Assembly (NCBI GenBank): GCA_905178155.1
Contig: CAJINV010000004.1
Location: 2,250,231 to 2,314,230 of the forward strand
Length of the DNA stretch: 64,000 nucleotides
DNA from: Amoebophrya sp. A120
Lineage: Eukaryota > Protista > Dinoflagellata
Reading direction: 5' to 3'
Shown here: piece by piece, positions 1-62,509 of the stretch
Layout: each line of letters opens with the position of its first letter
Numbering within the stretch: the stretch's first letter is position 1
The notes under the pieces: generated by a model
What the model was told of the DNA's origin: nothing
Seen by the model: the letters and a program-made list of their open reading frames with translations, nothing else
Database searches by the model: none
Program-made: the position numbers and the translations under genes

Positions 1-390
1 GCGGTGCTTTTTTTGGTCGGAACGGAGATGGACTACGTGGAGGTCGAAATGGGGTCGGAATTTGTCTTCAACAATCCCATATCAAATGCAAAAATGTCTG
101 GGTCTGGAAGATTGGAACTTGTGATGCATGTTGCGCATCATACAAAAATCTGTGTTGCGTGACTTGCAAAAGGTGCCCATTTCTGGCCATGCTGAGTGGG
201 CATTTCTCATGCAGAACAGGCATCACAGAGGGGCTACAGGTCCTGTGATGCTAGGCCCTGCATTCCAGACTTAGTGCAGGTTAGAGAAACTGCATGAGAA
301 ATATCGGAATCTTCCAGACCCAGACATTTTTGCATTTGATATCCCAACCAAAAGTCCAGTTGCGGCTGCGGGCAGAGCTTCAATGTGTAG
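1..390 (+). CDS. ISCA: Iron-sulfur cluster assembly protein IscA/HesB family, 3' part; exons 1-79 and 347-390
   Basis: Removing 80-346 gives AVLFLVGTEMDYVEVEMGSEFVFNNPNQKSSCGCGQSFNV*, which ends in the IscA C-terminal CGCGxSF motif. Confidence 0.9.
80..341. mobile_element. Family A TIR introner in the IscA gene
   Basis: TIR TATCAAATGCAAAAATGTCTGGGTCTGGAA, with its reverse complement at the right end. DR is TCCCA/TCCCA. Confidence 0.95.
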
Positions 391-829
391 GAGTAGACCT
401 AGACCTACGTGCAGCAGCAGTAGCACGACGAAGACGACTGACTGCTGGGGCCGGACGTTGAGGACAAAGTTGTGTACAACGTTAGTAGTGCGAGCAGGAG
501 GACTCAGCTCCACCCCTTCCGTCGCCCCCGATTACTTACCCGCGGTCGCCGACTTTTATTTACCCGCGGGCTTCGTGTAAGCAAGTAAGTAAGTAAGTAA
601 GTACCTAGTTGTCTTCGGGCAGCGCAGCTACTCAGCCTACTGGAGTTTCATCACCCAAGATGGACCGACATCGCACGACATCGGGAGCACCACGGGAAGG
701 CCGCGTCGCGTGCGTCGTGGGGCGCTTTTCTCCTGCGGGGACAGAGATCCTCGGTTGAGGAGGTGGTGAAGTAGAGAAAATCGGGTGAGCAGGCGACGGC
801 ACTGCACGTGTGTCAGCAGAAGTGTCGGA

Positions 830-1120
830 AGTCCTACACGCTCGGGGTCCAGTACCTCCCTGAAAATGATTTTAGTATCTTGATGCCCCCTTCAGTTCTT
901 CACCCCGCCCACGACGGACCTGCTGGATGGTCACAGCGAGCACGATGTTGACCCTATAAACGTAGGAACAGCGATCGCGATTATATTCATGTTGTAGTAG
1001 ACTGTCTGGTGGTGTGGGCTAGTAGTGCTGCGACAGAAGATGAACAAACGACAAGGATTTAAATTGAATTCTCTTCACCTAATACGGTCACACGAGGACG
1101 ATACGACGCCGACAGTTCAC
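830..1120. repeat. Diverged dispersed repeat, copy 1 (copy 2 at about 6545-6895)
   Basis: Shared blocks CTACACGCTCGGG, GTCACAGCGAGCAC, GTTGACCCTATAA, GAACAGCGATCGCGAT and GGTCACACGAGGACGATAC. Confidence 0.75.
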
Positions 1121-1707
1121 ACAGGACAATACGACTTTCGTTTTGCTTCGCAAAACGAAAAGCGCAGCGATTGATTGCCGTATCGCCTGACCGGTGGCGG
1201 AGTTCATAACGTTCCCCAGTTGTACGGTGGAAGAGGATAAATCTATCGCGATCTAAAGACTATGCTGTTCGCTCGTCTCGCTCTTTTAGCTGCCGTGAGT
1301 GTCGAGTGTGAGATGTCGCGTAGTCGGAACTGTCCCCTGCACGGAGTGAAATTGTGTCCGTAAAAACATGAGGATGATCGTAATTTTGTGTAAAACGATA
1401 GTCACAACAAGACCTTGTTTGCCATCGTTGAAGCCTGCTCCTGAGGGCTTCCGAGAGTCAAAATGTCAAAATCCTTTGTGCGATTTGAACACGACGTTTT
1501 CGATAAAATGAAAATTCCAGATCGAGCATCGACGACGTGATCGTGTCGTTAGATTTCTTTGTTATTTTGTATCGTAACTGTGTTTATTATTACGCGAAGA
1601 GTTGTGACGACTAAGTGCGACTATGGACACACGATTTTGCCAAACAGGTCGCGCAAGTCCCCCAAGAGCATCATCAATCGTGAAAATTTAGGTTTTTATG
1701 TGCGTAA

Positions 1708-1800
1708 CCCTTGGTTGGAGGAAAGCGTAAAGTGACGTCACCCTTGGTCGTTGTAAGAAAACGTAAATTGACGTCACCCTTGGTTGGAGGAAGAGCAAAT
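1708..1800. repeat. Imperfect tandem repeat of about 35 bp, about 2.7 copies
   Basis: The unit CCCTTGGT...CGTAAA(G/T)TGACGTCA is repeated. Confidence 0.7.
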
Positions 1801-1962
1801 TAGTATCCTCTCGGACAGTACGACCACGCCCAGCCCTTCGCTCCTGCAACAGAACGACTGCGACGTGCAGCCTATGTGGTTCCGCAGGTGGCCGTGGCAC
1901 GAGCGGCTGGTTACTGCTTAGTAGGGAGACAACATGAACATAATCTCCACCGCTGCAGCTAA

Positions 1963-2298: not shown

Positions 2299-5200
2299 GG
2301 CAACGTTCTTTCCCCGCACTGCCGGGGGCACCAGCTGCACCGCAGTCGTTGTTGCACGGCGCTTCTGTAGTTCACTCCTTCTTTTCTTGTTCCTCGGAAC
2401 TACGCAGAAGGTGCTACTGTTTACCAGAGCGACCACTACTTTCCGGGACGAAGGAAGTACAAGTAGCCGAAGCGACGCGCAGGCCGGCAAGAAAACGACA
2501 ACCACCACGAGGACACACGACGAACACGAAGAGCAGAAGCTGCCAAGAACTCGTGGGCGGCCCACAACAGCCCCGGTGGCCGATGACTTTTTTGACGATG
2601 ATGTTCGTGCAGGCGACGAGAAAAACGTGAAAACTCGTGCGCGTGCAAGTTCTTACACAACTTATCTGCACGGAGATGCCGTCTTCGACATCGAAGAATA
2701 TGCATTGCAAATATGTCTGGGTCTGGAACAATGATGCGAACTTGTCATGCGCATTTCAAATCGCACGAAGAATCTGTCATGCGCGGACAGCAAAAGTGGC
2801 CGACTTTGATGTGTCACCGAAATAAGAGGGGAAGGATCAGGCATTGAGATACCTTCTCAAGACCTGTAATGCCAGGGCCTCCAACATGCGGACATTTTGT
2901 GTCACGGGAAAACAGCATGACAAACTTCTACGGTCTTCCAGACCCACACATATTTGCATTTGATAAAGAAAGCAGGACACCCATCAAGCATGCCGCTACG
3001 CCAGCAGCGTCCGGGCGCGCCGCTCTTGAAGTTGGAGCAGCAGGTACTGGAGGCATAGAAGATGCTTATCAAAGGCAAAAATGTCTGGGTCTGGAAACTT
3101 GTGATGCAAGGAAGGGAATATTCAATATTGAGCACACTGTAATGCGCAGCACCCCAGCATGACAAGTTTTTCCGTGGTTCAGAGTTGCGTACCCCGCATG
3201 AGAAGCTGCGTTTTTGCATGACAGACAAGAGGACCTCTTCGCGGGCACGCAATACAGAGTTTAGAGTCATGCCAGACTAGCATGACAAATCTCGCAATCT
3301 CCCAGACCCAGACATATTTGCAGTTCATAATGCTCCAGGAAGAACAACCTCCGCCGTGGACGAGGAAGGGGAAGATGAGATTCTCGAAAAGCGTGCTGAT
3401 GAAGGTGCCGACGTCCTCACGTCTGAGCACCCGGAACATGATGCGCAGCAAGAAGCGAAGCCGGAGATGATGAAGCAAGAGCGGTCTGCTCTACTTGAGG
3501 GCGAACGTGTAGTTGTTAAAAACACCCAGCATCACCATCCGAATCTCCGGGGCGGTAGACCTGCAAGTAGTGGTAGCAGCTTAGCAACATCGTCAAGGGC
3601 GGAGGTCACATCAAGTTCTATGGTAGCGCTACAAGAGGTAGTAGTGCGGCAGATTGATGAAGAAAAATCTTCTTTCCTGAATTCAACGGCGTCATCAAAA
3701 TCGTCGGCAGAAGGTGAAAAAAGCGATGAACTTTTTAAGTCGTCGGACTTTGTGCAAAAGACTGCTGGATCCGTCGTGAACACCCGCTTGAGCAGCTCCG
3801 GAGAGACGACCAAGATGAAAGCAAAAGAAAAAGAACAGCTACTACACCAAGAAAAACAACAGCAGCGTACAACGGTGCAAGTCGGAGACCTGCTAGGATG
3901 TGTGTGCAGTGCGGGAGGACCTTCGTTCTCTTTGCCCGAGGCCTTCCTCCGCCATAATCCGTGGGCGCGTGTTGAACCGGTTTGCAAGCCGCCGGCCTTC
4001 TGCCCCATATTTGGGCGACCCTACTACGTCCCGTGGAACGCTCCAGTCTCCCTCGTGGACCAGTTTGGCAAAAGCGCAGGGTTATTGAAAGCCGCGAAAG
4101 ATAACAATGGCCTGTTCACGTCGCTCAACAGTCTACTATCACGATATCTCCTCGGACTAGAAGAAGAACCCCCGAGAACGGGCGGCCGCTCGCCTGGTGG
4201 TGTTGAAGCCGCCGCACAATCATCCCCGAGAAATAAAGTAGCAACTACCTGGCGACAACGCGCGCAGGCGCTGGTCGAGGCCGCGCAGTCTCGAATCTTC
4301 TCGACTCCTACAGATGTCGTGGACGGACATGTGGAGCAGTTATTTCGAGAGCTTGATGCGGAGTTCGACGCGGAAGTATCAAATGCAAAAATGTCTGGGT
4401 CTGGAAGGATGCAAGGTTTGTCATGCACGGTTTGCATGACTCCTGATGTCTGCGATGCATGCCCTAGCATCACAGATCTTGTGAGGGCTTTCTGATGGTG
4501 CCTATACCGTATGAGAAATGCCCTCTCGCCGGGGCCAAAACCAGACCTCTTTTGCTGTTCATGCAATACAGATTTTTGGATAATGCAGACGCAGCATGAC
4601 AAGTTGCATTCTTCCAGACCCAGACATTTTTACAGTTGATAGGAAGAGGGGTTAGACGATGGACTCGACGTGGTTGACCCGAGGCTGCTTGAAAACCCCC
4701 CGCCCGGAGCTTTGGTCAGCCCGGTTGCCGCGGTCTTTGACTTGGACGAGGTGGATTCCGACGGGAGGGGAACGGGGCTGCGTGGCCGCTGGGACTCGCC
4801 GACCAACGCGGACCCGTTTCTGCTCCGCTTCACTCCAGACCTCGACGTCCCGCACTCGCACTACAGAATGTCCAGAGTCACGCAGTTCTCGGAGTTGTTC
4901 CCGCACGACGTCTACCAAGTGCAAAAATGTCTGGGTCTGGAAGAATGCAACTTGTGATGCTGCATTTGGATTCCAAGAAAATTTGTATTGCATGAGTACC
5001 AAAGGGAATGCAGTTTTTGCTACGGCGCTGAGAAGACATTTGTCATGCGGAATAGGCACCAAGAAGGCCTCAAAACATCTGTATTGCTAGGGTATGCATC
5101 ACAGACATCATGGCTCATGCAAAACGTGCATGACAAGTGTCAGAATCTTCCAGACCCAGACATTTTTACAGTTGATAACGTCGCACAGCGCACCCCCAGA

Positions 5201-6581
5201 AGATCACCTCCCGCCGCGGAACAAGCGGACCCTGGAAAAGGAAATTTGCATTCCCGTAGAGATAATAAATCGAAGCATCGAAGCATGCTTGACGTATCAT
5301 TTTCAAGTGATATTACGGCATATGGTGACGTTTTTGTGTATTTTTTATTGCAAGGAAAAATCCCCCCGTCCCATATCAAAACGAAATTTCTGATGCTGGA
5401 TTTGTGTACACAGACCAGCTGCAGGAAGGCACTCTTGCGGCCAGATCCCCAGGCTAGGTAGGGGCGTATGAGTCTAGTTCTTCAGCATGGCAGACGGCTC
5501 CCCTTTAAGCCCGCCAGCGTGGCAAATCGCTTCCCTAATGGGGCGGAAGCTTCTGCCCTTGTCGTCTTCCAAGACACACTTGATTTGTGGCCTCAAATCA
5601 GGAGCACAAATTTTCGGAAACATAGGTTTTCAATATGGGGAGGGGGGATTTTCCATTTTGATACTTTTCCAGTATTATTTCCGCATGGGATTTTGCGACT
5701 TCTGCAGATCGAGCTGTCTTCGAGGCGCCGCCACGGCTTCACAACATGTGCTATCCCACGAAAAGAGTGTAGTTTCACTGTAAGGATTTTGCAAGTTGTT
5801 TTGCATGAGAAGTTTGATGTTCTACATGGCGAAGAAAATTTGCCATGCGAGGTTGTTCCTAAGGGAAATAAACACAACTATAGAATCAATTCCCTGTCTT
5901 GCATGTGTAGTAGCACGACAAACACTTCTATAGATGCATTACAAGTTTACCCTGAAGTAACAGTTTTTTCCTGCGATATGTGTGTTGAGTCGTGTATTCT
6001 GTACATGTACGAATACGTGACCGGGGGGGACGCGCCGGAAGACAAGAAAACAGATGATCCTGCCTATCAAAAAGAAAAATCCCCCTCCCCCATATCGAAA
6101 ACGAAATTTGTGATGCAGTATTTGAGTACAGTCTGACTCATGATCAGTATTCTTGATCATGCTTACAGTACACAAATTGTCTTGCTGGAGAGGACTGCAG
6201 ACCCATATCAAGCCTGAGGAGAGAGGCTTTGACTTAGGCGCTTAGCATGAAAAGCGTCCGTGATGTTGGCTCAACAGCATGACAAACCGGCTCCATAATG
6301 GGACGGAAGCTGCTGCCCTTGTCTTCTTGCAACACAAACGTGATTTGTGACCTCAAATCAGTAACACAAATTTTCGAAAGCCTACCTCTTCAATATGGGG
6401 AGGGGGGATTTTTCCTTGCGATACTGCCATGGTGCGCGCGCTCCTCCGGGTACATGGAGCGCTCGTGCGGTACGCCGAAGATCCTGAGTCTCCCGGCGCC
6501 GTCTCCAAAGTGGGGTTTTTTGGCGACCCAGACGCTGTGGCGGCAGTTCTACACGCTCGGGAGCCAGGAGCAGCTCCCTGA
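2171..6581 (+). CDS. Hypothetical multi-exon protein (start and middle exons uncertain)
   Basis: ORFs 2171, 2869, 3356, 4670 and 4988 join in frame when each element plus one DR is removed (DIEE|SRTP, EDA|PGR, AEE|GLD, HDV|AQR, DPA|MVR). Confidence 0.6.
2699..2965. mobile_element. Family A introner
   Basis: Family A TIRs; DR AAGAA/AAGAA. Confidence 0.92.
3067..3329. mobile_element. Family A introner
   Basis: Family A TIRs; DR ATGCT/ATGCT. Confidence 0.92.
4377..4641. mobile_element. Family A introner
   Basis: Family A TIRs; DR GGAAG/GGAAG. Confidence 0.93.
4913..5177. mobile_element. Family A introner
   Basis: Family A TIRs (left end TAC); DR ACGTC/ACGTC. Confidence 0.92.
5346..5663. mobile_element. 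Family C element (TIR TAT-N7-AAAAATCCCCC(C)TCCCCATATC)
   Basis: Family C TIRs; DR TTTTT/CTTTT. AT-rich context, possibly intronic. Confidence 0.85.
6065..6423. mobile_element. Family C introner
   Basis: Family C TIRs; DR CTGCC/CTGCC. Confidence 0.92.
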
Positions 6582-8840: not shown

Positions 8841-11800
8841 ATGATGCAAGGCCTACTGAAGCCGTACAAGAACGTGGCTGCTATCCTGAGCAGAAACGTC
8901 CCTGCCCCAGAGTCAATGATTGGGTACGTAGCAATAAAAGAAATCCAGAAGCTTTCGGAGTCACGCATGACAAGTTCCTCGCTGCATTGTAGTGCAGTTG
9001 AGCAAGCGCGGCCGCATGACCACAGTGCCGTCCTCTCCTTGTCCTGTTTAGAGCAGCGCTAGTACAACTACACATGCCATCAAAAGTTACGGCTGGAAAT
9101 GTCTACTTTGTCATCATGGGCGGGACGCGCATTGCAAATGTTAATGTTCCTGCAGTGCCAAATCTGCATGACAACCCAACCCTGCTGGGGTGAGAACGTT
9201 TTTGTCCAGGATAGCCGTGGAGAAGCAGCAGCGCGACGCGGCCAACAAGTCCAACGCCTCGGAACTATCAAATGTAAAAATGTCCGGGTCTGGAAGACTG
9301 CCAGGTTTGTGTTGCATATTCTGCATCAGCCACCAAGCATCACAGATTCTTAGAGGGCTTTGTGATGCCGATTCCGCATGAGAGATACCCTCCACACGTG
9401 GCACAAACTGGCCTCGTCTTGCTGGTCATGCATCACAGATTTCTTTAGAATCCACAGACAGCATCACAAGTTGGATCCTTCCAGACCCAGACATTTTTAC
9501 AATCCATAGGAACCTCTCTCGGTCCAATCTGGCATCAGCTCGGATGGCACGCACTCCTCCGCCGGGGCGGCGCACCAGGGTATGACGAACGAAGATTTAA
9601 GTAATTCTGCCCGCTTCCTCCGTATTTGTACTAAATGTATGTTATCCCACAGAAAAAAGCTGGCAGGTCACATTTGTAATGCAAAAATAAATACACAAAG
9701 CAATCTGTATTGCGTATCCGAAGCAGCATGCTATGAGGCCGCCCATGGCAGATTTTTCTGTGTATTTATTTTTGCATTACAAATATGCCCTGCCGGCTTT
9801 TTTCTGTGGGATATATGTTGAAACTCAAATTATATTAACCTCGTTTCCTCAGCCTGCGAGCTGTCTGTTCCATGATCGGCATGGTGACAGAGTATCGAGA
9901 AAAACCGTACATCAACCGCAGTACGCATGGATTGCGAGAACTGTGCCCTGTTTGGAATCATGGCATCCTATGGCGTCACTGATTCAACATGCAGCTAGTG
10001 TTAGAAGATAAGGCGATGGGAATATGGTGAAAATTATACTTCTTGTTTACTCATTCTGCATCTTCACTTGCGACGAGCTCTTTTACCACTACCAAATAAG
10101 GAGGTTGTTGGACGGGTGGAATCAAGGGGTTTTTTGTGCACGCTGATACATGACAGCAGCAGTACCCAAGCGACGTCGAGCGGGGAGTTGAGTCCGCCTA
10201 TCAAGAAGAGAAATCCCCCCTCGTCCCAATATCGAAAAGGCACGCCTCAGAAAATTTGCAGTGTTGATTTGGGGCCACAAGTGGCCTCTTTCTTGCAAGA
10301 AGGCAACTGCTCTACCGGCTCCGCGGTTTAGGATGCTCCTAGACCGCATTACACAGGCGGTTTGGGATGCCTACGTTAGACCTAGTACAGGGAAGGCGTC
10401 TGCCATGCTATGCGCCTACCCCAAAACATCCGCGCTAAGGCGGTCCAGTACTGCAAGTCACAGTACTGCAAGACACAGCTCCGGATTTGTGTACAATAAA
10501 CCTGCATCACAGATTTCCGCTTTGATAGGGGGAGGGAGGATTGATTTTTCTTCTTGATACCGCCCACGTTGCTGCACATCCGGAAGCCGTTCTGCCAACC
10601 GGTATTACAGTGAAAAATGCCCCCACGACCCCGGAATTTGCAAAAGGTTCTCATGCATAAGGTTTTCAAATGAAGAACTTTTTATTTATGCATAAAAGGA
10701 CTATGACTATGAGCCTCTCTGATGCAGCAGAATCTAGGCACGGAAGGTAGTTGCTGCATCAGAGATCCGCCTGCTCTTGGGCTCCTTTGCAAAACAAATT
10801 TCAGCTATTCAGCATGGCAAATTTGTCATGCTGATATATGCAAGACGGGGAGTGTTTCCATCGGAAGGGTTTGCAATACAAATGCTGCCAGGTAGTGCTG
10901 GGGTGTGGGCATTTTTCATTGTAATAACAGGAGCCGCGGATCAAGGACAGAAAAGAGCGGGAGAAGGCGGAACGTATCAACTACTATAGTGCTGATTTAT
11001 TTGACTTCTCTGTTGGACTTGGAGTTGGTCTAGTATCGCTTGTGCTCCTTCGAACAAACCCAAAAATCCTCTTCCTGACTGTACTCGCCGGCTTGCCAAA
11101 TGTTGCGCGCGGACGAACATCAATTCCCCAGGTGCTATGCCCGTCCCGGTTTCCTCCAGTCCTTCGCTGGCACACAGGACGTTTCTCGGCACCGCCTACC
11201 TGGGCTTCAACAAGAACCACACCGGCGCGCTATCGTATTTAAAAACGTCCCTAACCCATATTTGTATATGCAAATTTGCATGCTGAAAATGTTTCTCATG
11301 CGCAGCCCAATTAGAAGCATTTTCTACCTGCGTTTTGGAATTTGTTATGCGCCAACCAGCATGACCATGACATACTAGATCTGTGATGCTTCTGAGCTAC
11401 CTCAAACAGCAACACACTACGAGTCCGAATTTGTCATGCAAAACAGCCAAAGCGTGTGGTGTGGATTTGTCTAGCCGATTCCCCGTCTTGACTATGGGGT
11501 GGGGACGTTTTTACATGGGATACGCGCCCAACAACCTGCACCCGGTGCAGAACGTGAAGGACAAAGAGGTCCACGTATTGAGAGGAAAAATCCCCCCTCC
11601 CCATATCGAAAAGGTCTGCTTCCGAAAATTTGTGATGCAGACTTGTGACCACAAATGCTGTCTGTCTTGCAAGAGGGCAAACTCAGAGACTCCGCCACGA
11701 TATGCAGACGATTTGTAATGCTGCAAGACCTATAGGGCAGACGTCTTCCATGCTAGGCCCCTACACCAAGAGGCCCGCCCTTAGGCTTGCGATCTGCGTG

Positions 11801-45292: not shown

Positions 45293-48200
45293 ATGCCCGA
45301 GCCCGACGAGGGGGAGGCACAGATGAACATTACAGCCAAGAACCCAACTGAAGGGCAGGGTGACGTGGTCGACCAGGAGATGACAACACCAGGTCCGCAA
45401 GAACACCAGGTCGTCCAAGAGCAGCAGGGCATGGCCTTTGCGAGTCTGCTGCACAGTCAGGATATTTTGCAGCAGGAGGAGGAAGAGAAGTTAATAGCAG
45501 TAGCACGAGCGTCATCGAAGGAAAGAAAGGTAGCAGAAGGCGAGGACGAGCACACGGCTGAGACAGTTGTACGAGAGCCTTCACCGGATGAGGGCCAGCA
45601 GGATGAAAAGCAAAATGCAGGATCTTCCCCGACTTTGATCGACATCGACGTCGGGGCCATGCTGGGCCCGATCTTGGATCACCTCGACGAGGAAGAGAAG
45701 GAGGTGAAGAAGCAGGTGCAGATCGCGGAAGTCGAGGAGGCAAAGACCACCGCGAATACTAGTAAGTCTGGTCGGCTGGCCGGAACAGCAGGCTTGTCCA
45801 TTTTGGGGCGGTGGAAGAAGAAGGTGCGCCAACTGCAGATGGGCATGCGGGTGGCGAAAACCCTGGATGAGCTGCACCAAGCGGTGAGACAGAAAGACCC
45901 CGTGCTTTTGAACCAGATGGCGCCGTTGCAACGGCTGATCACGCAGGGGTCGGAGAAAATGATCACCGAGGTGGCGACCGCGGTGCCGAAGGACGACTTG
46001 TTCCGAAAGAGAGGGGACGAGGATATCAAATGCAAATATGTCTGGGTCTGGAAGATTGGAAGACTTGTCATGCACATTTTGCATAACCCATGATGTCTGT
46101 GATGAATGCGGTAGCATCACAGTTTTTCTGAGGGCCTCCTGATGCCTATACCGCATGAGAAATGCCCACTCGGCGTAGCAAAGACACGACTTCTCTTGCT
46201 GCTTATGCAATACAGATTTTTTTAGAATCCAAGGACAGCATGACAGGTTGCATCCTTCCAGACCCAGACATATTTGCAGTGCATAGAGGAGGTTGAGAAG
46301 CAACTCCTGCTGGACGCGCAAAACGTCGACATCCTGGACGTGCTCCAGGAGGTGGAGATTTCCGACCACCAGAAACAGATGGAGATGATTGACAAGCGGG
46401 GACGGCAGGCCGCGAAGGAGGAGCGGAAGCGGCAACGGCAAGCGAAGTACAAGCAGCAGGCGCAGGATAAAGCACTAAAAGTTTTATTCTTCGACCAGAA
46501 TCACCATCCCTATCAAATGTAAAAATGTCTGGGTCTGGAAACTTGTAATGCTGCGTTGGGAAAAGTGAATGCTCTGTAATGCACGGGCAAGCATGAGACA
46601 TCTCTGCGCTTCTTTGTGTTGCGTTTTTCGCATGACAAACTGCGTTTTTGCATGACAGGCAACAGGGTCTCTTCTTGGACACGCATCACAAGCTTTGTGG
46701 TCCTGCCAGACAAGCATGACAAATCTCGCAATTTTCCAGACCCAGACACTTTTACATTTGATAATCCCTACCGCCGGTCAAAATCCACCGGGACCTCGAA
46801 GTCCTCGTTGGATCTCGGCACGGAGGAAAGTAGGGACTCCTCGGAAGAAAAGATGAGAACAACCGGAGCTTCTCCTGCGCAAGAACAACCGCATCAGTTG
46901 ACGGGGAGCCACCGTGGCACGCACCCAAGCACGACGGACAGCTCGTTTCAGTCCATGCGGAGGAAGTCGAAGGACCTGCTCGCGCAACAGCAGGATTACG
47001 TCGTGAGGCCGCGGAAGAACAGCCGGGACCGGCAGGTTTCGGGGGCGGCGTACCCGGACCCAAGGGAGCCGTTTCCCGTCACCCCCGAGGAGAAGCGGAA
47101 AGCGCGGTTGTGGCGGATTTTCAAGCGGTCGGAAGACGCCAAGGTCTCCGTGGCGAAACACAATTTGCGCGCGAAGCTGCAGAACAAGCCGCCCGCCCCC
47201 GGCGGCGTGGCGGACTTCCGGAAGGGCGCGAAACGCAACCTGCCCTTCCCCCGCGACGCGATCGCGCGGGCGGCACTGACAAACTTAACGTACCAAAACG
47301 AGCTGATATCCAAGAAAAACTCGCTGCAAAACAACCTCGGGAAGGTATCAAACCGAAAAATCCCCCCTCCCCATATCGAAAACGAAATTTGCGATGCTGG
47401 ATTTGAGTACACAAATCGACTTGTAATGCTGGAAGGCCAAGAGCCGCAGTTGTGGCCTCGGGTGCAGGCAATTTGTCATGCTGTTTTCCACTTCCAGTTG
47501 CTCTCTGTCATGCTGAAGGCGCAAGGCTTTCCCACGCCAACCAGCACCACGCTCCGCATGTCTTTCCTTCTAGCATGACAGAGCTGATTTGTCACCACAA
47601 ATCTGCATCACAAATTTCTAGTTTGGGGTGGGGGGATTTTTCATTTTTATAGAAGGTGATTGCGCGGCCGGAGCAGTTCCCGTTCACGTCGGAGGAGCTG
47701 GAGCTGGCCGGGTTATCAAACGTAAAAATGTCTGGGTCTGGAAGAATCCGAACTTGTGATGCTGCATTTGGATTCTAAAAAAATTTTTATTGCATGACCA
47801 GCAAAGGATATGCAATTTTGGCTACGCGGCGAGAGCATTTGTCATGCGGAATACGTATCACGAAGCCCTCAAAAAGTCTGTGATGCTTGGGCATGCATCA
47901 CAGACATCGTGGCCCATGCAAAACGTGCATGACAAGTTTCAGAATCTTCCAGATCCAGACATTTTTACATTTGATACGGGTACGGGGAAAACGAAAACGC
48001 GGAGACGAACCCCTTTCCGGATGTGCTGCACAACATGTCGGGGAGTAATTCCACGATGGGGGGTAATATAGGCGCGCAGCTGGGGTCCTACATGGAGACC
48101 AACTTTGGAGACGAAAATATTACTACCCATTCGGTTGTTCAACATGACCTCGAGAAGATGTTGGAACAGCAGGCACACGCCCACGAAGCAGGTCTGAGCG

Positions 48201-51200
48201 GACCAATGTCCGTCGATTTGGAGCAGTTCCGGGATATTTCCTTGCAGTCCCTGGACCCCTCGGAAATCATGCCGGCTGCTGTTGCGGCCACGGTCACCCA
48301 GCAGGCGGAAAAGCTGCAGGAAACGCTGCGGAAGAAACCGGCAAAGAGGCTGCACAAGGACATGGTGCAGGAGTCGCAGGCGCGGTCGCCTTGGTCGCCA
48401 CTGCCCAAAACGGACGTAGAGGAGATTCTGCTGGAACAACAGAAAGCGAAAGCGAACACGGGCATCAACCTGTACCACCCCCTGGCGAACCCGACGGACC
48501 GCTTTTTGCCCAGCTTTCTCTTCCCCCACCCGGCGGTCCACGGGGACTACGACTTTTTTCACGAAGACTTGCCCTATCTGATTCAGAAGCAGCAGCTATC
48601 CAATCGATGGAGCAAAAGTCGTGCGTTTAAAATGATCGCATGGTCGTATGAATTGCATAGATAAATGATAGGCAAAAACATGAAAATGATCCCTTTTCCT
48701 TTACTTAAAACTCGTTTTAGAATTACATCAACAATAAATAAAAATGCAATTGGTACTAAGTGCGATTATACCGATACATCACGTACTAGTACTTTTGCAA
48801 TGCATAGCAGCACCAGAAGCACGACCTGGAGGACCACGAGTACTTGATTCTGCCCATGGCCCGGTTTGCTAACGAGCCTTTGGTCGGCGAAAACCGGGTG
48901 CGCTTGGTTTTGTCGAAACTGGAAAAATTCCCGATGCTCCGGAAGAACAACGGCATGTCCCTGCTACCCCCACTACACAAGAACATCCCGAAGGCGCCGA
49001 AGAAGAAGCCGAAGATCTTCCCCCCGAAGGGCGTCGCGGATATGTTGAGGAAGCGGAGGGAGAAGCCGCACGTAACCCACCCGCTGGCGATCTACCACGA
49101 CGCGGTCGTGGCGATCGAGGAGCGGTGTAAGGCCATGAAGGAGGAGTGCCGGAACAAGCTGAAGGAAAACCAGCTGCGTTCGCGGCGGATTTGCATCAAG
49201 AACGCGCAGCTGCCGCATTCCCGGCGCCGGCAGGTGTTGAAGCAGATCGCCTGCAAGCGGTCGGAGTTGAAGAAGCGACAGTTTTTGGCCGTGAAGCCCG
49301 TGATCAAAGCTGCCGACCCGCCCCCGAAAAAACCCGGGAAGGCGGGCGGCCGCTGGCGGGCGGGCTTCGCGAAGATCACGGGCAAGATATCCTGAGTAAA
49401 AACGTCCCCATTGTACCAGAGTCAAGATGGGGAATCGGCTAGACAAGTCCACGAGTTTTGGCTGTTTTGCATGACAAATTCGGAGTCGCAGTGTAGTGCT
49501 GTTTGAGGTAGTTCAGTAGCATCACAGATCTAGTGCATCACGCTGATAGGCGCATTACAAATTCTCGAACACGACCAGAAAATGCTTCTCATGTGTCTCC
49601 GCATGACAACCATTTTGAGCATGCCGATTTGCATGACAGCTCTGGGGTCGTGGGGACGTTTTTACACAGGATACAAGATGCCGCCGACGGAGCGGCCGAG
49701 TTCGGGCGGCGGCAAGAAGTCGCTCTTCATGGCCGCCTTCACGGACCGGGCCGACAGCGACGAGGAGCCCATTGAGGACGTGGAAGTAAAACCGGACACG
49801 CGGCTAGAATTGGACAAGCTCGAGTCCGTCGACAGCACGACCGTGACCGCGCTGTTGAGTCCGCGATACGACGGTTCAACCATGAACCAGGTGGTGCGCC
49901 CGGCGGTGACCAGCGGGCCCAAGAACAAGCACGCGTGGCCGCTGCCGGAGGAATCCAACCTGACCGTCACCCCCTCGACGCAATTCTACCGGGACTTGAC
50001 CCTGCAGGGCCCCTGGTACCAGGGGGGCATGTCGCGCGTGATTCAGACCATGCAAAACGAGCAGCCCCAGAACACGAACGCGGGTGTGGATGCGGCGAAT
50101 CTGCTGAAGAAGCAGGACAAGCACCAGCTCCGGGAGTACTCCATCAAAGACACCGCGGACTGGTATCCTGAGTAAAATCGTCCCCACCCCGATCCCAGAG
50201 TTGTGATGCAAATGTGCAATGACAGCAACATTTGTAATGCGCAGTTCCATGAGAGGCATTTCCAATCGTGTTTTGGAATTTGTAATGCCGTAAACAGGAT
50301 GAGAAAATGGCTTTCTAATGCGGCTCCCCTTGCCAACCACCACTACACTGCAGAGCGAAACTTGTCATGCACAGCTCCCAAAACTTGGAGACTTGCGTTG
50401 CTAGATTCCCAACTTGACTATGGGGTGGGGACGTTTTTGCTTGGGATAACTGGCGCATCCTGTTCGACTGTTTCTACCCGAAGGATCGGACGAAAAAGCC
50501 GCGGAAGCACCCGATCCTGATCCGTACGGAGCAGACGACGAACGCGAGGTTGATGTTCTCGGAGACGCTTTCGATGGTGTTGCGGTCTTTGCATTTGCAC
50601 CCACTCGGGGACACGAAGCAGATGCACTTACAGGTAAAGGAGCTGGTGGAGTACCGGGCAAACGCGGCCAGGATGCAGCTGTCGAAGATTTTCAAGAAGG
50701 AAGTGAAGCAGAAACCGACCAAGTGGAACAAAGACACCTTCACCACCACTATGCAGATGTTCCAGCAAACCGAATCGCCCGCGATGTTCGAGCAGGCGCA
50801 ACTGAGCACCGACTGGTACACTGGGCCCCGGGACAAGCAAGCGTCCCTGCCCACGAGCAAGGAGGTCCGGCGGGTGCTGGCGCGGCAACTGGACTACTAC
50901 GTCACGTGCACGGACGAGTTTATCGACGCGTTTCGACAGGATTTTCCGCCGCTGGACGAGGATACCCAGGCCATGCTATGGTGAGCAAAAACGTCCCCAC
51001 CCCAGAGTCAAGATGGCAAATCTGCTTATACAAATCAACCAGCTTTGGCTGTTGCGCATCACAAATTTGGGCTCGCAGAAGTATAGTCGTGTTTAGCTAG
51101 TGAAGCAGCATCACAGCTCTAGCATACCATGCGGATGCGAGCATCACAAATCGCAAAACACCAGCAAGGCCTGCTTCTCATGGGTCTCCGCATGAGAAAC

Positions 51201-54200
51201 ATTTTCAGCATGCAGATTTGCATTACAACTGTGGGTTGGGGACGTTTTTACAAATGATATATGCTGGACATGGGCTTGGAGGAGTACCACCCGAAGTTCT
51301 GCACAGTGGACCACTTTCTCGAGGTGTTCCAGGCGTTGCGCGCGAACCACGGGTTCAGCAACAACGAGCTGGACGGGATCACCTACTGGTTTTTGAAGCA
51401 CCCCTTCTCCGCGGAGTCAGTCCGCCGGTTTTTGCTGCGCTGGGGCTACGCGACGGACTTCGAGGTGCTGTGGGACAGCGCGCGACAGGTGATTCCGGGA
51501 ATCGTGAAGAAGGAGAAGTCAACGAACACAAACAGTACCCAACTACACTCTATCAACTGTAAAAATGTCTGGGTCTGGAAGGATCCGAACTTGTGATGCG
51601 AGTTGCGGATCATACAAAGATCTGTGTTGCATGACTGGCAAAAGGTGCTCACTTCTGGCCATGCTGAGAGGGTATTTCTCATGCAGAATAGGCATCACGA
51701 AGGGGCTGCAGAACCTGTCATGCTAGGCCCCGCATTCCAGACTTGACAGAGCTTGGAAAAACTGCATGACAAATTTCGGAATCTTCCAGACCCAGACATA
51801 TTTGCAATGCATACACTCCGTGTCCCAGTTGTCCCTAGATGCGACGGGGGGCGCGAACAACCAAAGCCAGTTGCGCCAGGGCAAGGGACGGAGGTCTCTC
51901 TCCAAGATGGACAGCGTGGTCAGCAACGTCGACGAAAGCAAATTCAAGCCCTTCGAAAGCGTCGGCGACAGCTCGGCGTACTGTTTATTTTTTATTTGAA
52001 TTTTGTATTTCGTATTCGTACTACTACTATTCTATGAAGTTTTTCTTAAGATGTCAACGTAGTGCACTCCCTTGTTGTGCTGCTCCGTTTACTCATCGGG
52101 TCGGATGGTCTTTCAAGTGCTATACACATCTGGAACTTGTAGCAATGAACACACATCACAGGTCTTCGAACAACGAATCCGCCGAAGAGTGGGAACTGCC
52201 GGCTAACTGCAAGCTGTGCGTTATGCTGAGCAAAAACGTCCCCACCCCAGAGTTGTCATGCAAATCCGCATGCCAAGAAAGTTGCTCATGCGGAGCCCCA
52301 TGAGAAGCATTTTGTAGTCGCGTTTTGGAATTTGTGATGCTAGAATAAGCATGATAAGCTAGATTTGTGATGCTGCTGAAATAGCAAAACAGCACTACAA
52401 TACGAGAACAAACTTGTCATGCCAAACAACCAAAGCTGGTTGTTTGTCTAGCAGATTTCCCATGTTGACTCTGGTGTGGGGACGTTTTTGCACAGGATAT
52501 GCGTCCCCCAGATCGCGTACGTGCTGCAACACCTCATCGCGGCCCAGGAATTGAAGGTCCGGAAGGTTTACGAGGAGTGTGTGAAGGAAGACCAGCGGCA
52601 GCTGCTCGCGAGTGGCAAGTCCGGCCCGGTCGAGGATTTGCCGAGGTTGAGCGATACCCATTTTGACGAGGACTTCCCGCGGTTGCGGTACGCGCCGATT
52701 CCGAGTGAGACCGTTTTGTCCCTGTTGCCGTTCTATCAAATGCAAAAATGTCTAGGTCGAGAAAGTTGGAACTTGTGATGCTGGCCTTACATTCCTGAAA
52801 AATCTGTATTGCATGACCAGCAAAAGACGTGGCGTCTTCTGTCATACAAAAACGCAGTTTCTCTTTTGCAGAAAGCGTATGAGAAATAACCGTTCTGCAA
52901 ACTTGTCATGCTTGGCTGCATTGGGAAGCGCTTTCATCATGAACAGTTCAGCATCACAGATTTCCAGACCCAGACATATTTGCAATGCATACGTTCCCGC
53001 CCTACGTGTCGTTGATGCAGCCCGTGCCCGCGATCTACACGCAGGACGCGCTGCGGAAGTTCGTGCGCCAGGTGATTCAGTCCCACGGCTTCTCCACGTC
53101 GTTCCTGATGCTCGCCCGGAACTGCTTCTACCGGATTGTGGACAAGACGCCCGACCTGATCGACCTGAACGCGCAATTCTACCTACCGGAGGTGTTGGCG
53201 ACGGACGCGGATATCGTCTTCGACAGGTACCACACACGGGAACAGCGCATCAAGCCGGAAGACGGGTCCTTCATTCTGCCGCCGAATAGCCCGCTGCTGC
53301 CGGATGCTGCGGCGAGCGGAACTGTATTAGGAAACAATAGCAACTCAAGTGCGACATCAATATTACATAGCGCGAATCAGGATGACAACATGAATTCTAG
53401 TCCGCTGACGTTGAACCGGGAGCAGACGAGCCTAACGCAGCTGTCCACCATGTCGGCTGCGAGTGTGATGACGACGGGAACGGACGGTAGGCCGAAGAAG
53501 CGGTTTAAGCGCCAGTTGTCTTCCTCCCCCAATAACAATCCGGACCCGACTTTTTGGTCGGACACCTTTCACATTATGGAGCGCAAAAAGTGGGACAACA
53601 AGCACTTCCTCCACCCGCGATTCTTCTCCTGGTGGATCCAGAAGATGGGTTTCAACAGTTGCAGTGTGTACGATCTGACCTTTCTGCAGCGGAGAAAAGA
53701 GCCGTTAGACTTGTACGACTGCCTAGAAATTCTCCGGCCTTTACTGGAAAACGAAAAGTTCATGATCTCTCAACTGTTTGTCCTCTATGTGATCACGCCG
53801 CCCCGACCCCTCCGCACCTACATCTCCGGACCCAAAGAGTTCCCGGAGGCGGACGCGCCGCGCGGGTATTTGTTATTATCTTTCGACGAGGCGCAAGAGA
53901 TGGCGGCGCAGGGCCACGACCCGCACAAGGTCGAGGTGCTGATGGGGCTGCGAGACGACGGGAAATCCCGGGTCGACATGGACGTGTTGTTGCAGATCTT
54001 CTTAACACTCACCGCCTTCCCACGGGACCGGATGGACCAGGAGTGCCTCGAGGACTTCAAGCTCGATTTTGTCAACGCGTCGATCGAATCGACGGTGGAA
54101 GCGGGGGAGAAACAGCACGACGGCGGGGAAAAGATCGCGCTCAACTTTTTCAACGTGGTCAAGATGCTGAACAAGATCCGGATCGCAAGTGCGCTGGACG

Positions 54201-55628: not shown

Positions 55629-55936
55629 TATGGATTGCAAATATGCCTGTGGATCCGGAAAACAAAGTGTAAACTTTTGATGCGTCGTGCGGGGCACACA
55701 AAAATCAGTCCTATTTGGCTATTATACCTGCAGTTGGCGGCCCCTTTGATCTCAATTGGGGAAGAGTTTTCTCATGCAGGATTTGCATTGTCAAGAGCTG
55801 CTCACAGGTGAGTCTGTGATACTAGACCCTGCCTTTCAGACCTCATTCTCGGGCATGGAACACCCGCATGACAATAATCCTAGCGGGAGCACACCGCTTC
55901 GACTTCCAGAGCCAGCAGACGTATTTGCAGTTGATA
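55629..55936. mobile_element. Degenerate family A-like element
   Basis: TATGGATTGCAAATATG...CGTATTTGCAGTTGATA; DR CCTCG/CACCG. Confidence 0.6.
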
Positions 55937-56499: not shown

Positions 56500-57714
56500 T
56501 CGTCCAGTTTTACGATGATTTTTCATGCATGACGATAACGCGACAAAGAAAATCAGTTACTTCAATGCCAGTGTGGGTCATTTTGCTTTCCAATCGATTT
56601 CCATAATATCCCAGGTGAATTTGAACACGAGCAGGCGAAAGAGGAATGGCAAGTGCGTATGAGAGTGCACAGCTTGTTTCCTCTCCTTCATTTAGCATAC
56701 AAATTTCCATGTCCACTCTCAGCTCTGCTCGGGTGACATCAGCATCAGGAGGTCGCGTATACGAAATGTAGTGCTACAATCGTCCATGATGTGCCACGGA
56801 CTTCCCGTTCAGAGACAGCATCTTCATTTGCGGCCTTGGTGTTCCTGCTGCATCTGCCCTTCGAAAAATGAAGCGCAGTGGGAGCAGGTGTTGTGCACTC
56901 TCATATTGCAGGCTAGTCAACACGCGATCGTGGGCTAGAAGAGCGCGGCTGTTTTAAAGCGGTTTCGAGCTCGAAGTATGTATGGCAGTGGACAACTTCT
57001 TCCTCTTCCCGGCGTTTGTGATGCAAAAGACCGGTTTCGCTTCCAGGTCCAGCGCTTGGCAACGTGAGCATCGAGGAGGAGGGGTTGTTCACTATCATGC
57101 TCTAGGGCCCGCCTTGTTGTGGAGTACCTTCGTGTAAGATTTTTTCTACGAATTGCAATTTTCTGTACCTAAATGAGTTGGATTTATTTCGGAGGATGAA
57201 ACACTCCCAATATCACTGCAGTATGCTGTCATGACCCCATTAGCGGCCGAAGCCGAATGTAAAGACCATGAGATTTTTGTGCACTATTTACGGAATGAGC
57301 AGAAATTGACGTTTCCCTTTGTACGATGGTGGACAAGAAGAGCATCACGTGAATGCGAGGTAGGTGACGACTCTCAAACACAAGAAAAATCAATGCTAGT
57401 GAGAACTGGTGGTGCACATGCCGTCCGCTACAGGCGGCGGTGGGAAGCGCAGAGATTTGAATGATTGGTCATTCTGTTCTTCGCTGTCTGTTCGGGCGAT
57501 TTATTTTCACAAATTTGGATTTTGTCTTTCGGTAAAATGATGATCCCATTGTGTGTTTCTCTTCTGCTTTTGGTAATTGAAGAACGAAGCTTTTGTACTA
57601 TTTTGATGTTTTATATTTATTTCGGATCTTCCTCGAAACCAACAGGTGCAGGTGTCGTCAAAAAATCAATTATAACTTCGTTATACCAATCGTCACAACA
57701 ATCGCCTCGATAAG

Positions 57715-58741: not shown

Positions 58742-59342
58742 TTCAAAAGAACAAGCGGAAAGGGCGCGGCAGGAACTGATTCAAAAGATCAGCGGCAAGC
58801 GCTCGCGCTGGGTGCGTTTACCCAGCCAACGAAGGGAGGTCTGGCACCTCGAAGAAGAAGACCAGGTGCCTCTCACCAGTACCCGATGTTACGCATGTCT
58901 GAGCGTCGCTTTGGTATGCGAACTTCTGAAAGATCCATCAAGACTCGTTCTTTTCTCAATGCGAGACAGACTTTGTTGTTTGAGAGGCTGATCTCCGATC
59001 TGGAAAAATTTTCAAATTGTTTCAACGGTGAACATCTGTTCCGGAAGAAAAAAAACGACGACGTTCTTGTTCAGATCTCGCCTGTTGCTCTGTTTGGAGC
59101 ATACTATTCTTCCGATCCTTTACTAAATGCTTCGTCTTAATACGTTTATTTTTTTACAATCGTGCTGATCCCAAAAAAAATCGCTATTTTTGCAACGGAA
59201 ACGTGCTCCTCCTCCGAATCCGAAATGAGAATAAAACCTCATGTCAACACCAGTTTCCGTAGTCGTGATCCGAATTGCATTTGCTAGACGCAAGTTTAGT
59301 TTTCTGTTCGAAGACTCAAAACCAACCCCACTCTCCTTCAAA

Positions 59343-60630
59343 ATGGCCAATCCGAAGGTTTTCTTTGACATGTCCATCGGCGGCGCCAACGCCGGCCGCA
59401 TCGTCATGGAGCTCCGCAAGGACGTCGTCCCGAAGACCGCCGAGAACTTTCGTGCTTTGTGCACGGGCGAGAAGGGTACAATAGGTTTTTGAGTGTGTGG
59501 AAGGCATGATATTATTCGCAATAAAGTGCATTTGAATCATGTTGTTCGAAGGAGAAAGAGATGCATTGACAACTCTCGTCGAAGATGCACCAAAGATCGT
59601 GAAAAAGAACAAAATAGATCTTGGTTCATCGAATAATATCCGACACGAACAGGTATGGGCAAGTCCGGCAAGCCGCTGCACTTCAAGGGCTCCGCTTTCC
59701 ACCGCGTGATCCCGGACTTCATGTGCCAGGGTGGTGACTTCACCGCGGGCAACGGAACCGGTGGCGAGTCCATCTACGGTGCCAAGTTCGCCGATGAGAA
59801 CTTCCAGTTGAAGCACACTGGACCGGGTACTGGTTTTTTTATGAATTTGTGTTGCGGATTTTGACGAGGGATGCATTTTGTGTTGCAGATTTTGCGTTTA
59901 GCAAATTCTTTTGTGTCATTAGGAAGAGGAACTAACGTATCAATGCGTGATCTAAAATCCCAAATCGAATAAATCCGCAGGTATCCTCTCCATGGCCAAC
60001 GCCGGCCCGAACACGAACGGATCCCATATGGCGTTCTCAACTGTTACATTCTCAACTGTTACATGGATTTGTGATGCAAGAACAGCAAAAGTGAAAGGGG
60101 TCACCTTGCGCGTCTTGCGTGACAGATCTGGCAAAGATTCTCAGCCTGTTTGGCTCTTCGAGAATTTGTCATGCGAAGCAGCTCGATCGTGTCAATTCTG
60201 ATTGTGATTTTGCATGACAAATCATGTAATAGCTCAGAATGTAACATTTGAGAACGCCATATCCCAGTTTTTCCTGTGCACCGTCAAGACCGCCTGGTTG
60301 GACGGAAAGCACTGCGTCTTCGGCTCCGTCGTGGAAGGTACTTATTATATCAGGACTGTGTTGCTATCGTTGTAATTGTATACGAACAATTTAGGGCAGT
60401 GACTTCTGCTTTTGCGAAGTAGAGATACATCATCACGGGATTGTGATAGTACTTAAAAAGTCGCCTTGCACGACCAGCCCTACCGCAATTGAGGTCGTTT
60501 TTTGATTTAACAATTCGCAATGCAAACACACTTTTCAGGTATGGATGTCGTGAAGAAGATCGAGTCCGTCGGCTCCCAGTCCGGAAAGACCGCCAAGCCG
60601 GTTGTGGTCTCCGACTGCGGGCAGTTGTAA
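59343..60630 (+). CDS. CYP: Cyclophilin-type peptidyl-prolyl isomerase; exons 59343-59475, 59653-59826, 59981-60026, 60267-60337 and 60539-60630
   Basis: [33 protein letters not shown] and [32 protein letters not shown]. Three GT-AG introns plus one TIR intron. Confidence 0.97.
60027..60261. mobile_element. Family D introner in the cyclophilin gene
   Basis: TIR TATGGCGTTCTCAA(C/A)TGTTACATTCT, 25/26 match; DR TCCCA/TCCCA. Removal restores NGSQFF. Confidence 0.95.
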
Positions 60631-62017
60631 GCTGTTTGGCATGCATAGCTTCGCATACCAGCGCAAGATGAGCTTGTTACGGTGTAATCATAACAACGGT
60701 GTAGTACTAATCAGGACTAGCTGCCGCCGCGCGCAGGTGGACAGAAAAAATTACGCAAGAACAATATCTCTACGCGGTTTGTATTACATCCTCAAAATCT
60801 TTTTTACTTTTTCAAAAGCGCTCGCCTAAATGACGGCGCAATCGAACAACGTCTCCTCTCGCAAGAGTAGGAGTTCCTTTCTACTTACTTCTTCGAGTGG
60901 CGCTCTTCATCTGCCGGCACTGACGCTGGCTCTCGATCATCAGGGCTGTAGTAGTACCTCAACATACTAGTTTACGGGTCGTGTGTTGTTTTTCTTGGAA
61001 AGCAATCACACAGCCGCGGCTGTATAAGAGGATGTAGTGGTTGGTACCAGGCGCAGGCGTCTAACCTAGAGATTTGCTGTCGAGCACTTTTCGTCACCAA
61101 TTCTACCGTACTGTTTACACTCTCAATGAAAAATGGTCTCGCAGTTATGCCTGTGTATGAATCTAAGACTTGGGAATGACGCTTGTATACAAGGCGTTTG
61201 TAATTTTCGCTTCTCCACAACCCGAAAGGAAATGAACTGTACTGTAAGAATTTTTCGCTCCCCTCGAATAGTTGGCTACGAGTACGATGTGCGTTTTTTT
61301 TCACGGTCGGGAGAAGAAAAGGAACGTTACAACACGTCGATGTAAGAAGTTTCACCGTAACGCTTGGCGATCCATTTTTACGGCTGAAAAAGTAGAAGCA
61401 GTGCAGCAGTGTAGGCTACAGGTGAACAAATTAAACGGGCTTGACAATAAGTACACTGAAGAACTTGGAGCCACTTTCTGACCGAGAGTTCGCTTCTGGA
61501 AAGGAAGTCAGGTTCAAAAAACTGAAAGTGTGGTTTCACCCAAGAAAAGCGCAGCTCGGCAGCATGAAGAGAAAAAGAGGAGAAAGTCGGGGACCGATTC
61601 GTCCGAAGCGGTCACAAGATTTTCATTGGCGGTGACGCTGAAGAAGATGCGTGGTTGTTCAGTAGATAAGGGTCTCTTCGTTGTGGTGCGCTAAATTGTT
61701 TTTTCCTTTTCGACGCGAGCATCTTTTTGCTTATTTCTTCTACCGAAGATTTCAGTGACGAGTGAGGTTTTCTTCAACCTTTTCTTCCCCTTCCGAGTCT
61801 AGTCTGACCGCGCACGACACGTGTTGCAGTGTAGTTGCTTGTGAATTATATTTGTCGTCGTTTTTACCATGTTATTTTCCTTCCCACCTGTGGTAAACAC
61901 ATCCGCAGATCTCAGAGTGGCAAGAGACTGACAAAAAATCTTAGTCAAGAACAAGATCGAGAAGGAAAAATAACAGCATCTCTTCAACCAGACCGACAAA
62001 AAATCCAAAACTTCAAG

Positions 62018-62416
62018 ATGGCGGGCAAGTCGCAGGAGCTGATCAACAAGTTGCTGCAGGCCGAGGATGAGGCCGAGAAGATCATCAAATCGGCCCGTGA
62101 CATGCGGTCCAACAAGCTGAAGGACGTGAAGTCTGCGGCGGAGGAGGAGCTGGCGCCCTTCCGCATGAAGGAGGAGCAGAAGTTTTACGACGAGCAGCGC
62201 GCGGTTGTATCCTGTGCAAAAGTGACGTATTCGTATTGCAATCATGCATTACAAATTTTGTTCTTCAGGTAAATCAGCATTACAAATTTTGTTTCTCATG
62301 CTGAGGAAATTTGTAATGCATTTATACGAGTGCGATACTTTTGCAATTCATAGGTTGCGGCCCAGAACAGCATGTCGATGGATTTGGAAAAGTCCACGGC
62401 GGGGGAAATTGCCGCG
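62018..62416 (+). CDS. ATP6V1G: V-type ATPase subunit G, 5' part (exons 62018-62207 and 62358-62416; 3' end not found)
   Basis: MAGKSQELINKLLQAEDEAEKIIKSARDMRSNKLKDVKSAAEEEL matches the subunit G N-terminal pattern (LLxAExxAxxxVxxAR...RLK). GT donor at 62417. Confidence 0.8.
62208..62352. mobile_element. Short family E introner in the V-ATPase G gene
   Basis: TATCCTGTGCAAAAGT...ACTTTTGCAATTCATA; DR GGTTG/GGTTG; frame restored on removal. Confidence 0.85.
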
Positions 62417-62509
62417 GTATGTTAAAAAAGGAGTGTAAAATGAGGAGGGCGTTCTTGTGATGCAGCGCGAATCTGCGTGCACTGTGTTGTCTATCCGTCT
62501 GAAGTTACA

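Follow-up and report, generated by a model that had tools for sequence, protein, structure and literature searches.

We analysed a stretch of 64,000 nucleotides (nt) from the dinoflagellate Amoebophrya sp. A120 (contig CAJINV010000004.1, positions 2,250,231 to 2,314,230; hereafter the window), in which short inverted-repeat elements share the end signal TAT-N7-AAAA. This pattern very probably represents the ends of A120 introner elements: inverted-repeat inserts, likely mobilized by one transposase supplied in trans, that are spliced out together with one copy of their flanking repeat, likely always as N-TAT...ATA-NNNN. The window elements are introns: they lie in exons and are removed from RNA, each with 5 additional nt, as non-canonical introns. 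An earlier interpretation made from the DNA letters alone (the sequence-only reading) had correctly singled out the shared end signal and missed this intron nature.

Counted on both strands of the window, TAT-N7-AAAA occurs at 85 sites, compared with 7.3 ± 2.3 (maximum 12) in 50 dinucleotide shuffles, bearing out the shared end signal. Spacers of 3–6 and 9–12 nt give 4–23 sites, and a spacer of 8 gives 74 because the A-tract is mostly five long. A scan that did not presuppose TAT, its sole requirements being complementary arms and a perfect direct repeat (hits beginning in a tandem array at 62500–62800 were excluded), returned 36 hits for a repeat of 5 base pairs (bp), of which 34 start with TAT, one with TAC and one is internal; for a 6-bp repeat it returned 0 hits in the window. 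We curated by hand a set of 52 elements (104 ends), which may miss older copies. They measure 145–444 bp, total 14,416 bp, and are repeated and non-coding, forming sequence clusters of 21, 9 and 8 elements plus 14 singles. Their flanking 5-bp repeats are perfect in 36 of 52 cases and match at four of five bases in 11, at three in 4 and at two in 1. Repeat composition is near the coding background. An excess of repeat mismatches at the first position in the window (8, 3, 4, 2, 3) was absent from a larger set (6, 6, 4, 7, 4) and was dropped.

All six end strings listed in the sequence-only reading (families A, B, C, E, F and G) are present in the window, as are the arm-to-arm mismatches it reported at 51551 and 62208. 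TAT starts 102 of the 104 ends, AAA occupies positions 11–13 in 87 and AAAA positions 11–14 in 72; between the two arms of an element (n = 52), mismatches number 0–1 at positions 1–3, 11–25 at positions 4–10 and 1–5 at positions 11–13. TAT and the A-tract are thus held much as had been proposed, except that six of the 52 elements lack the A-tract at both ends. The hypervariability that had been assigned to positions 4–7 is real, but the variable stretch spans positions 4–10 and is biased, with C or G at position 4 in 93 of 100 ends and G at position 9 in 74 of 100 (first 50 elements). A type A orientation marker matched in only 9 of 62 cases, and no orientation was read from it. Loci of a second assembly, which may or may not be from the same strain as the window, were fetched with the type A pattern (at least 139 loci, all JACKZZ01 contigs, 889,750 nt including overlaps). 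Among the matches listed for these loci, 332 of 341 5-bp hits from the scan that does not presuppose TAT start with TAT, the end logo agrees with that of the window, and 46 of the 52 window elements have a relative.

The evidence that the elements are introns comes from RNA and from the host proteins. In a BiP/HSP70 gene, run X21 has raw RNA reads that skip 284 nt (356 reads) and 261 nt (528 reads), in both cases the element length plus 5 nt. Contigs of X1–X3, presumed to be RNA and skipping GT-AG introns as well, add nine element joints, each again of length plus 5; this exact skip is found in 11 of the 11 joints listed (two from raw reads, nine from contigs). Spliced at the RNA joints, BiP equals A120 protein P0009 over 661 of 661 residues, P0009 also being the closest single-domain relative of the HSP70 exon detected with Pfam at 20160. 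Both BiP elements interrupt exons where A25 homologs are continuous, and the protein is conserved across both sites. A 43-residue exon at 14857 has as its single protein match an A120 Mob1 model (P0121), at 100%. In silico, removal of length plus 5 nt places 26 of the 52 elements in plus-strand open reading frames (ORFs) of at least 300 aa, compared with 9–12 when the 5 nt are replaced by 3, 4, 6 or 7. GT-AG is possible, in any register, for only 3 of the 52 elements. An origin of the GT-AG introns as aged elements is disfavoured: of the introns whose positions coincide with those in A25, 98.6% are canonical. Not every copy forms an intron of its own: that at 9643 lies in a longer intron, that at 11957 is nested, and that at 15255 is read into by the public Mob1 model.

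Elimination of the elements from DNA, as with ciliate internal eliminated sequences, so that element-free DNA is transcribed, is extremely improbable. Excision between direct repeats would also drop the element and one repeat precisely; however, the contigs of run X17 continue from exons into elements and contain neither BiP joint (X17 may be the source of the assembly, and contigs drop rare forms), five RNA junctions combine bases of both repeat copies in the way one register predicts, and published work treats the elements as introns with RNA-seq support (PMC7789003).

Perfect repeats hide the position of the splice, and unequal repeats reveal it. With x counting the bases of the left repeat that fall within the intron, RNA junctions restrict x to 0 or 1 at 40547 and 42183, to 0, 1 or 2 at 55629, to 1–4 at 56658 and to at most 4 at 39783. 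The Mob1 gene model requires x of at least 1 at 8882, at most 2 at 10603 and 14595, and at most 4 at 13195 and 14240 (13410 is uninformative). Only x = 1 fits all 10 informative cases, five from RNA and five from the gene model, giving the intron N-TAT...ATA-NNNN; at 10603 the differing repeat base yields GT...AG exactly at x = 1. We infer, with fair confidence, a register that is always x = 1. All 12 canonical introns found in the RNA data (window 18999–56999) start with GTA, 8 of them with GTAT, and end in AG, mostly CAG; in this register, therefore, donor positions +2 to +4 come from the end of the element. The register likely mimics the host GTAT donor, with AG not needed. Among 121 oriented perfect-repeat elements from the second assembly, G at +1 (36) and an acceptor AG (13) stand at background, indicating that canonical dinucleotides are not selected. 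Since the elements interrupt exons and leave the RNA as non-canonical introns, TAT probably doubles as a splice signal. We found no earlier description of this register rule in the texts searched on A120 introner elements, as far as their available portions go.

At the RNA step, TAT would supply positions +2 to +4 of a donor resembling host GTAT, the paired arms would bring the ends together, and the 3' cut would fall 4 nt beyond ATA with AG unnecessary, the cutting presumably being done by the spliceosome with help from arm pairing; the arms of one intron fold end to end (z = −3.2). A different possibility, which we consider unlikely, is that TAT and the A-tract act chiefly at the RNA level, as signals for an endonuclease/ligase pathway that is directed by the hairpin and does not involve the spliceosome, of the kind suspected for euglenid nonconventional introns. 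Such a pathway would suit introns requiring neither GT nor AG, a strong end-to-end hairpin, arms whose positions 1–3 and 11–13 pair nearly without mismatch, and a host in which U1 small nuclear RNA (snRNA) was not detected (PMC7789003). It sits poorly with the inferred register, which sets TAT at donor +2 to +4 as in host GTA(T) introns, and with the reported presence in A120 of U2, U4, U5 and U6 and of 83 of 89 spliceosomal proteins (PMC7789003).

Beyond their ends, the elements share an internal motif, T(G/C)T-N-ATGC, with 187 sites in 14,416 nt inside elements compared with 11 in 49,584 nt outside. It is present in 49 of the 52 window elements, including five of the six without an A-tract, and at 65 of the 104 ends a copy starting 22–49 nt in faces inward, compared with 4 facing outward. 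Among the matches listed for the second-assembly loci, 417 of 424 elements carry the motif, at 14.1 versus 0.38 sites per kilobase (kb), with the site nearest the end peaking at 33–45 nt and no strand bias in transcripts (268 versus 233). Inward polarity at both ends is the look of subterminal transposase sites, and the motif is a candidate for such a site. The A-tract had been put forward as a binding site about one helical turn inward of TAT, but it is dispensable in six of 52 elements; T(G/C)T-N-ATGC is kept in five of those six and so ranks no lower as a candidate for the binding site. The families had also been called otherwise unrelated, which does not hold: they are related, since the inward-facing motif is common to them. 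We did not find T(G/C)T-N-ATGC in the main text of PMC7789003, whose figures may show it, or in literature searches.

The end signal is the already known A120 introner motif, because Farhat et al. 2021 (PMC7789003) state the same one, an inverted repeat of TAT, seven variable nt and at least three A. The A120 introners described there resemble the window elements further in their direct repeats (3–5 nt), hairpins, non-canonical splicing and size (near 240 nt). All five introner features that we tested are found in the window elements: host, end motif, direct repeat, non-GT-AG splicing and repeated non-coding sequence. In contrast to the published repeats of 3–5 nt and variable or unknown splice position, the window elements have a uniform repeat of 5 bp and are compatible with a single register. 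Gozashti et al. 2025 (PMC12130899) class the A120 families mostly as non-autonomous terminal inverted repeat (TIR) DNA elements of 100–350 bp, most without a superfamily; our comparison covered all 58 A120 rows of their supplementary file 8. The splice sites annotated there divide into NT donors and AN acceptors (as in family 2), so that no single register emerges from them. Their family 38, a Ginger-like TIR DNA element of 808–810 bp with homology to the Copia/Gypsy integrase region, is annotated '5-bp TSD, TA/TA Termini' (TSD, target-site duplication), which resembles the 5-bp repeats and TA ends of the window elements.

The view that the ends match no standard signature, with its implied novelty, fails on two counts, since the motif is in PMC7789003 and TA..TA termini are known for IS3EU/GingerRoot, with 6-bp duplications. 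IS3EU/GingerRoot (PMC10045372, PMC6839031) resemble the window elements in TA..TA termini, TIRs and the lack of a base-specific target. Their enzyme is an integrase-related DDE transposase, whereas none was found in the window or the second-assembly loci; their duplication is usually 6 bp rather than 5, and GingerRoot has TIRs of 100–150 bp in elements of 3.9–12.9 kb. IS481EU (PMC10045372) is similar in its TNT..AYA termini, short TIRs and integrase-like DDE enzyme, but its duplications are about 4, 15 or 25 bp and that source describes it from parabasalids only. Ginger1 and Ginger2 end in TG..CA, unlike TAT..ATA, and duplicate 4–6 bp (4 or 5 for Ginger2 in one source, 6 in another), so that the 5 bp seen here agrees with the first source only. 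Euglenid nonconventional and Fritillaria non-canonical introns (PMC11282704) are likewise TIR/TSD introns removed without GT-AG, but their ends (CAG/CTG in euglenids, AG-AC/AG-AT in Fritillaria) are other motifs in unrelated hosts. We therefore place the window elements in no transposon superfamily, as IS3EU/GingerRoot and IS481EU fail on duplication length and Ginger on termini, although they probably work like integrase-related transposons.

For the DNA step, we envisage an enzyme that would cut at TAT, bind the A-tract as well as the internal T(G/C)T-N-ATGC copies that face inward, and insert with a 5-bp stagger and no target preference, the flanking repeat being the presumed target duplication; a single transposase acting in trans likely mobilizes all families. 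On the strength of the TA ends, the 5-bp stagger and the annotation of family 38 (PMC12130899), we give even odds to an integrase-like DDE enzyme from the neighbourhood of IS3EU, GingerRoot and Ginger. Because the two ends are alike, an insert works in either orientation, and insertion into an exon thus costs little. Spread through an RNA intermediate, by reverse splicing and reverse transcription without a DNA transposase and with the 5-bp repeat arising from that insertion, is distinctly improbable. That no transposase was found in the window or the second-assembly loci, nor by PMC7789003, which favours copy-paste spread, speaks for this route; opposed to it are uniform 5-bp repeats without splice-site bias, copies inserted inside another element and inside a longer intron, the inward-facing internal repeats at both ends and the family 38 annotation (PMC12130899).

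The proposed mobilizer was sought directly. Pfam searches of 24 long window ORFs returned HSP70 and its antisense shadow only; in longer copies, 63 of 91 short ORFs were searched in this way, and none matched a transposase. Integrase motif patterns gave seven isolated matches in six frames, none in an integrase-like context. Six long TAT..ATA pairs with a perfect repeat were seen among the matches listed for the second-assembly loci and the window. Of these, locus L063 10001–14208 was rejected as a chance pairing of two separate elements flanking a host exon, and L055 10001–10972 proved to be a genuine longer copy whose insert is non-coding. L055 10001–10972 and L064 11772–12919 are longer copies with inserts of about 700–900 bp that are unrepeated in the loci examined and without Pfam hits, possibly captured DNA. 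At locus L137, a 764-bp TAT..ATA element (18126–18889) with different arms and short internal repeats lies inside an E-like element (18087–19012) and is a second kind of TAT-ended element. In viral contigs, neither of two family-A patterns had a hit; with a family-independent pattern there were 81 single hits and, in 80 ends examined, one weak partner pair, which we took as chance.

Several observations weigh against the proposed mobilization and splicing of the introners. No transposase or autonomous element was found in the window or in the 889,750 nt of second-assembly loci, and PMC7789003 found no transposase in A120. The proposal that one enzyme reads the shared signal fits non-autonomous TIR elements with a 5-bp repeat, but no such enzyme was found in the DNA examined. 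The window and the second-assembly loci examined contained no empty orthologous site at the DNA level, so the term target duplication rests on the repeat and on the conserved protein across the BiP sites. The 5' and 3' arms are equally conserved (145 oriented second-assembly elements, among the matches listed), making DNA-level and RNA-level roles of the A-tract inseparable here. The register rests on 10 cases with only two lower bounds (one from RNA, one from the gene model), five cases depend on the gene model, a mix of registers among introns fits too, and PMC7789003 calls the splice position variable or unknown. The listed joints cover 2 of 18 elements in one stretch and 9 of 20 in another, and runs X22 and X23 are nearly without cover.

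In its widest form, the claim would be that the tens of thousands of non-canonical A120 introns are always N-TAT...ATA-NNNN, with a donor supplied by the transposon end in which any first base is allowed and an acceptor set by distance to the paired end rather than by AG, and that all families go back to one integrase-like mobilizer with a 5-bp duplication, which reads TAT, the A-tract and the inward-facing T(G/C)T-N-ATGC; we regard this as about equally likely to be right or wrong. Fixing the register with unequal-repeat copies would turn 'unprecedented splice-site diversity' into one rule that existing RNA-seq can check across the genome, and T(G/C)T-N-ATGC could guide the hunt for the missing autonomous element and serve as a probe in binding assays. 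PMC7789003, in its available text, settles neither how the introns are spliced nor which enzyme mobilizes them, and the register rule and internal motif make both questions testable.

Table 1 Introner and related elements in the window, with the BiP gene. Element rows carry no strand ('.'); repeat n/5, matching bases between the two flanking 5-mers; x, left-repeat bases inside the intron; families E, F and G are those of the sequence-only reading.
Feature	Positions	Strand	Remarks
Introner, end type A	80..341	.	perfect 5-bp repeat
Introner, type A	2699..2965	.	perfect repeat
Introner, type A	3067..3329	.	perfect repeat
Introner, type A	4377..4641	.	perfect repeat
Introner, type A, left end TAC	4913..5177	.	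perfect repeat
Introner, type C	5346..5663	.	repeat 4/5
Introner, single in window	5752..5978	.	repeat 4/5
Introner, type C	6065..6423	.	perfect repeat
Introner, type B, Mob1 gene	8882..9213	.	repeat 3/5; gene model needs x ≥ 1
Introner, type A, Mob1 gene	9266..9508	.	removed in gene model
Element, family F	9643..9813	.	within longer Mob1-model intron, no intron of its own
Introner, type C, Mob1 gene	10199..10559	.	gene model
Introner, family G	10603..10926	.	repeat 4/5; model needs x ≤ 2; GT...AG at x = 1
Introner, type B, Mob1 gene	11231..11522	.	gene model
Introner, type C, Mob1 gene	11576..11897	.	gene model
Outer B-like element, type A nested in left end	11939..12537	.	repeat 4/5; outside the 52
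Type A element nested in 11939–12537	11957..12215	.	perfect repeat
Introner, E-like	13195..13358	.	repeat 4/5; model needs x ≤ 4
Introner, type A	13410..13661	.	repeat 4/5; synonymous, uninformative for register
Introner without A-tract	14240..14553	.	repeat 4/5; model needs x ≤ 4
Introner without A-tract	14595..14851	.	repeat 3/5; model needs x ≤ 2
Introner, type A, Mob1 gene	14986..15241	.	gene model
Element, type B	15255..15568	.	repeat 4/5; public gene model reads into element
BiP/HSP70 gene, 661 aa	18999..22708	+	coding region: 5 GT-AG introns and 2 introners
Introner, type B, BiP	21284..21562	.	284 nt skipped, 356 raw RNA reads
Introner, type A, BiP	21643..21898	.	261 nt skipped, 528 raw RNA reads
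Introner, family E	27201..27376	.	perfect repeat
Introner, type C	27493..27814	.	perfect repeat
Introner, type A, longer copy (444 bp)	28447..28890	.	insert unrepeated in loci examined
Introner, type C	30121..30440	.	perfect repeat
Introner without A-tract, right end ATG	32376..32687	.	repeat 4/5; many second-assembly relatives
Introner, type A	32745..33008	.	perfect repeat
Introner, type A	37259..37513	.	260 nt skipped in transcript contigs
Introner, type C	37548..37858	.	316 nt skipped
Introner without A-tract	38079..38442	.	369 nt skipped
Introner, type A	39783..40047	.	repeat 4/5; 270 nt skipped; x ≤ 4
Introner, type A	40103..40364	.	267 nt skipped
Introner, type B	40547..40901	.	repeat 2/5; 360 nt skipped; x in {0,1}
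Introner, type A	42183..42443	.	repeat 3/5; 266 nt skipped; x in {0,1}
Introner, type A	46024..46285	.	perfect repeat
Introner, type A	46511..46763	.	perfect repeat
Introner, type C	47346..47651	.	GT...AG at x = 1
Introner, type A	47714..47976	.	perfect repeat
Introner, E-like right end	48597..48806	.	neighbouring contig pieces imply 215-nt skip
Introner, type B	49388..49673	.	perfect repeat
Introner, type B	50164..50448	.	perfect repeat
Introner, type B	50977..51259	.	repeat 4/5
Introner, type A	51551..51813	.	perfect repeat
Introner, type B	52222..52499	.	perfect repeat
Introner, type A	52734..52991	.	perfect repeat
Introner, A-like ends	55629..55936	.	repeat 3/5; 313 nt skipped; x in {0,1,2}
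Introner without A-tract	56658..56905	.	repeat 3/5; 253 nt skipped; x in {1,2,3,4}
Introner without A-tract	60027..60261	.	perfect repeat
Introner, E-like	62208..62352	.	directly follows an exon matching V-ATPase subunit G

Some copies and neighbouring regions showed features of their own. At 11939–12537, an older B-like element carries in its left end a type A element that has a 5-bp repeat of its own, and the public Mob1 model nevertheless joins the outer exons, an arrangement that suggests intron-within-intron removal. In the public Mob1 model P0121, the C-terminal ~45 residues come from translating the element at 15255–15568 and match element copies in many loci; they probably reflect an annotation error or a retained intron. 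About 600 reads of run X22 match only a 45-nt stretch at 9705–9750, with unrelated flanks and one A-to-G difference, and may come from a relative of the element at 9643 transcribed elsewhere or from another organism. RNA-supported genes and the longest excised ORFs in window 18999–56999 all lie on the plus strand. Downstream of the BiP stop, a GT-AG intron (22836–22973) and strong RNA cover to about 24,130 may belong to a long spliced 3' region or to a second gene. The tandem array at 62510–62790, built of near-palindromic units of about 17 bp, has no relation to the introner ends. Locus L016 contains a 73–84% similar copy of this array and further downstream similarity; we rejected it as an ortholog of the 62208 site, as only the tandem array aligns.

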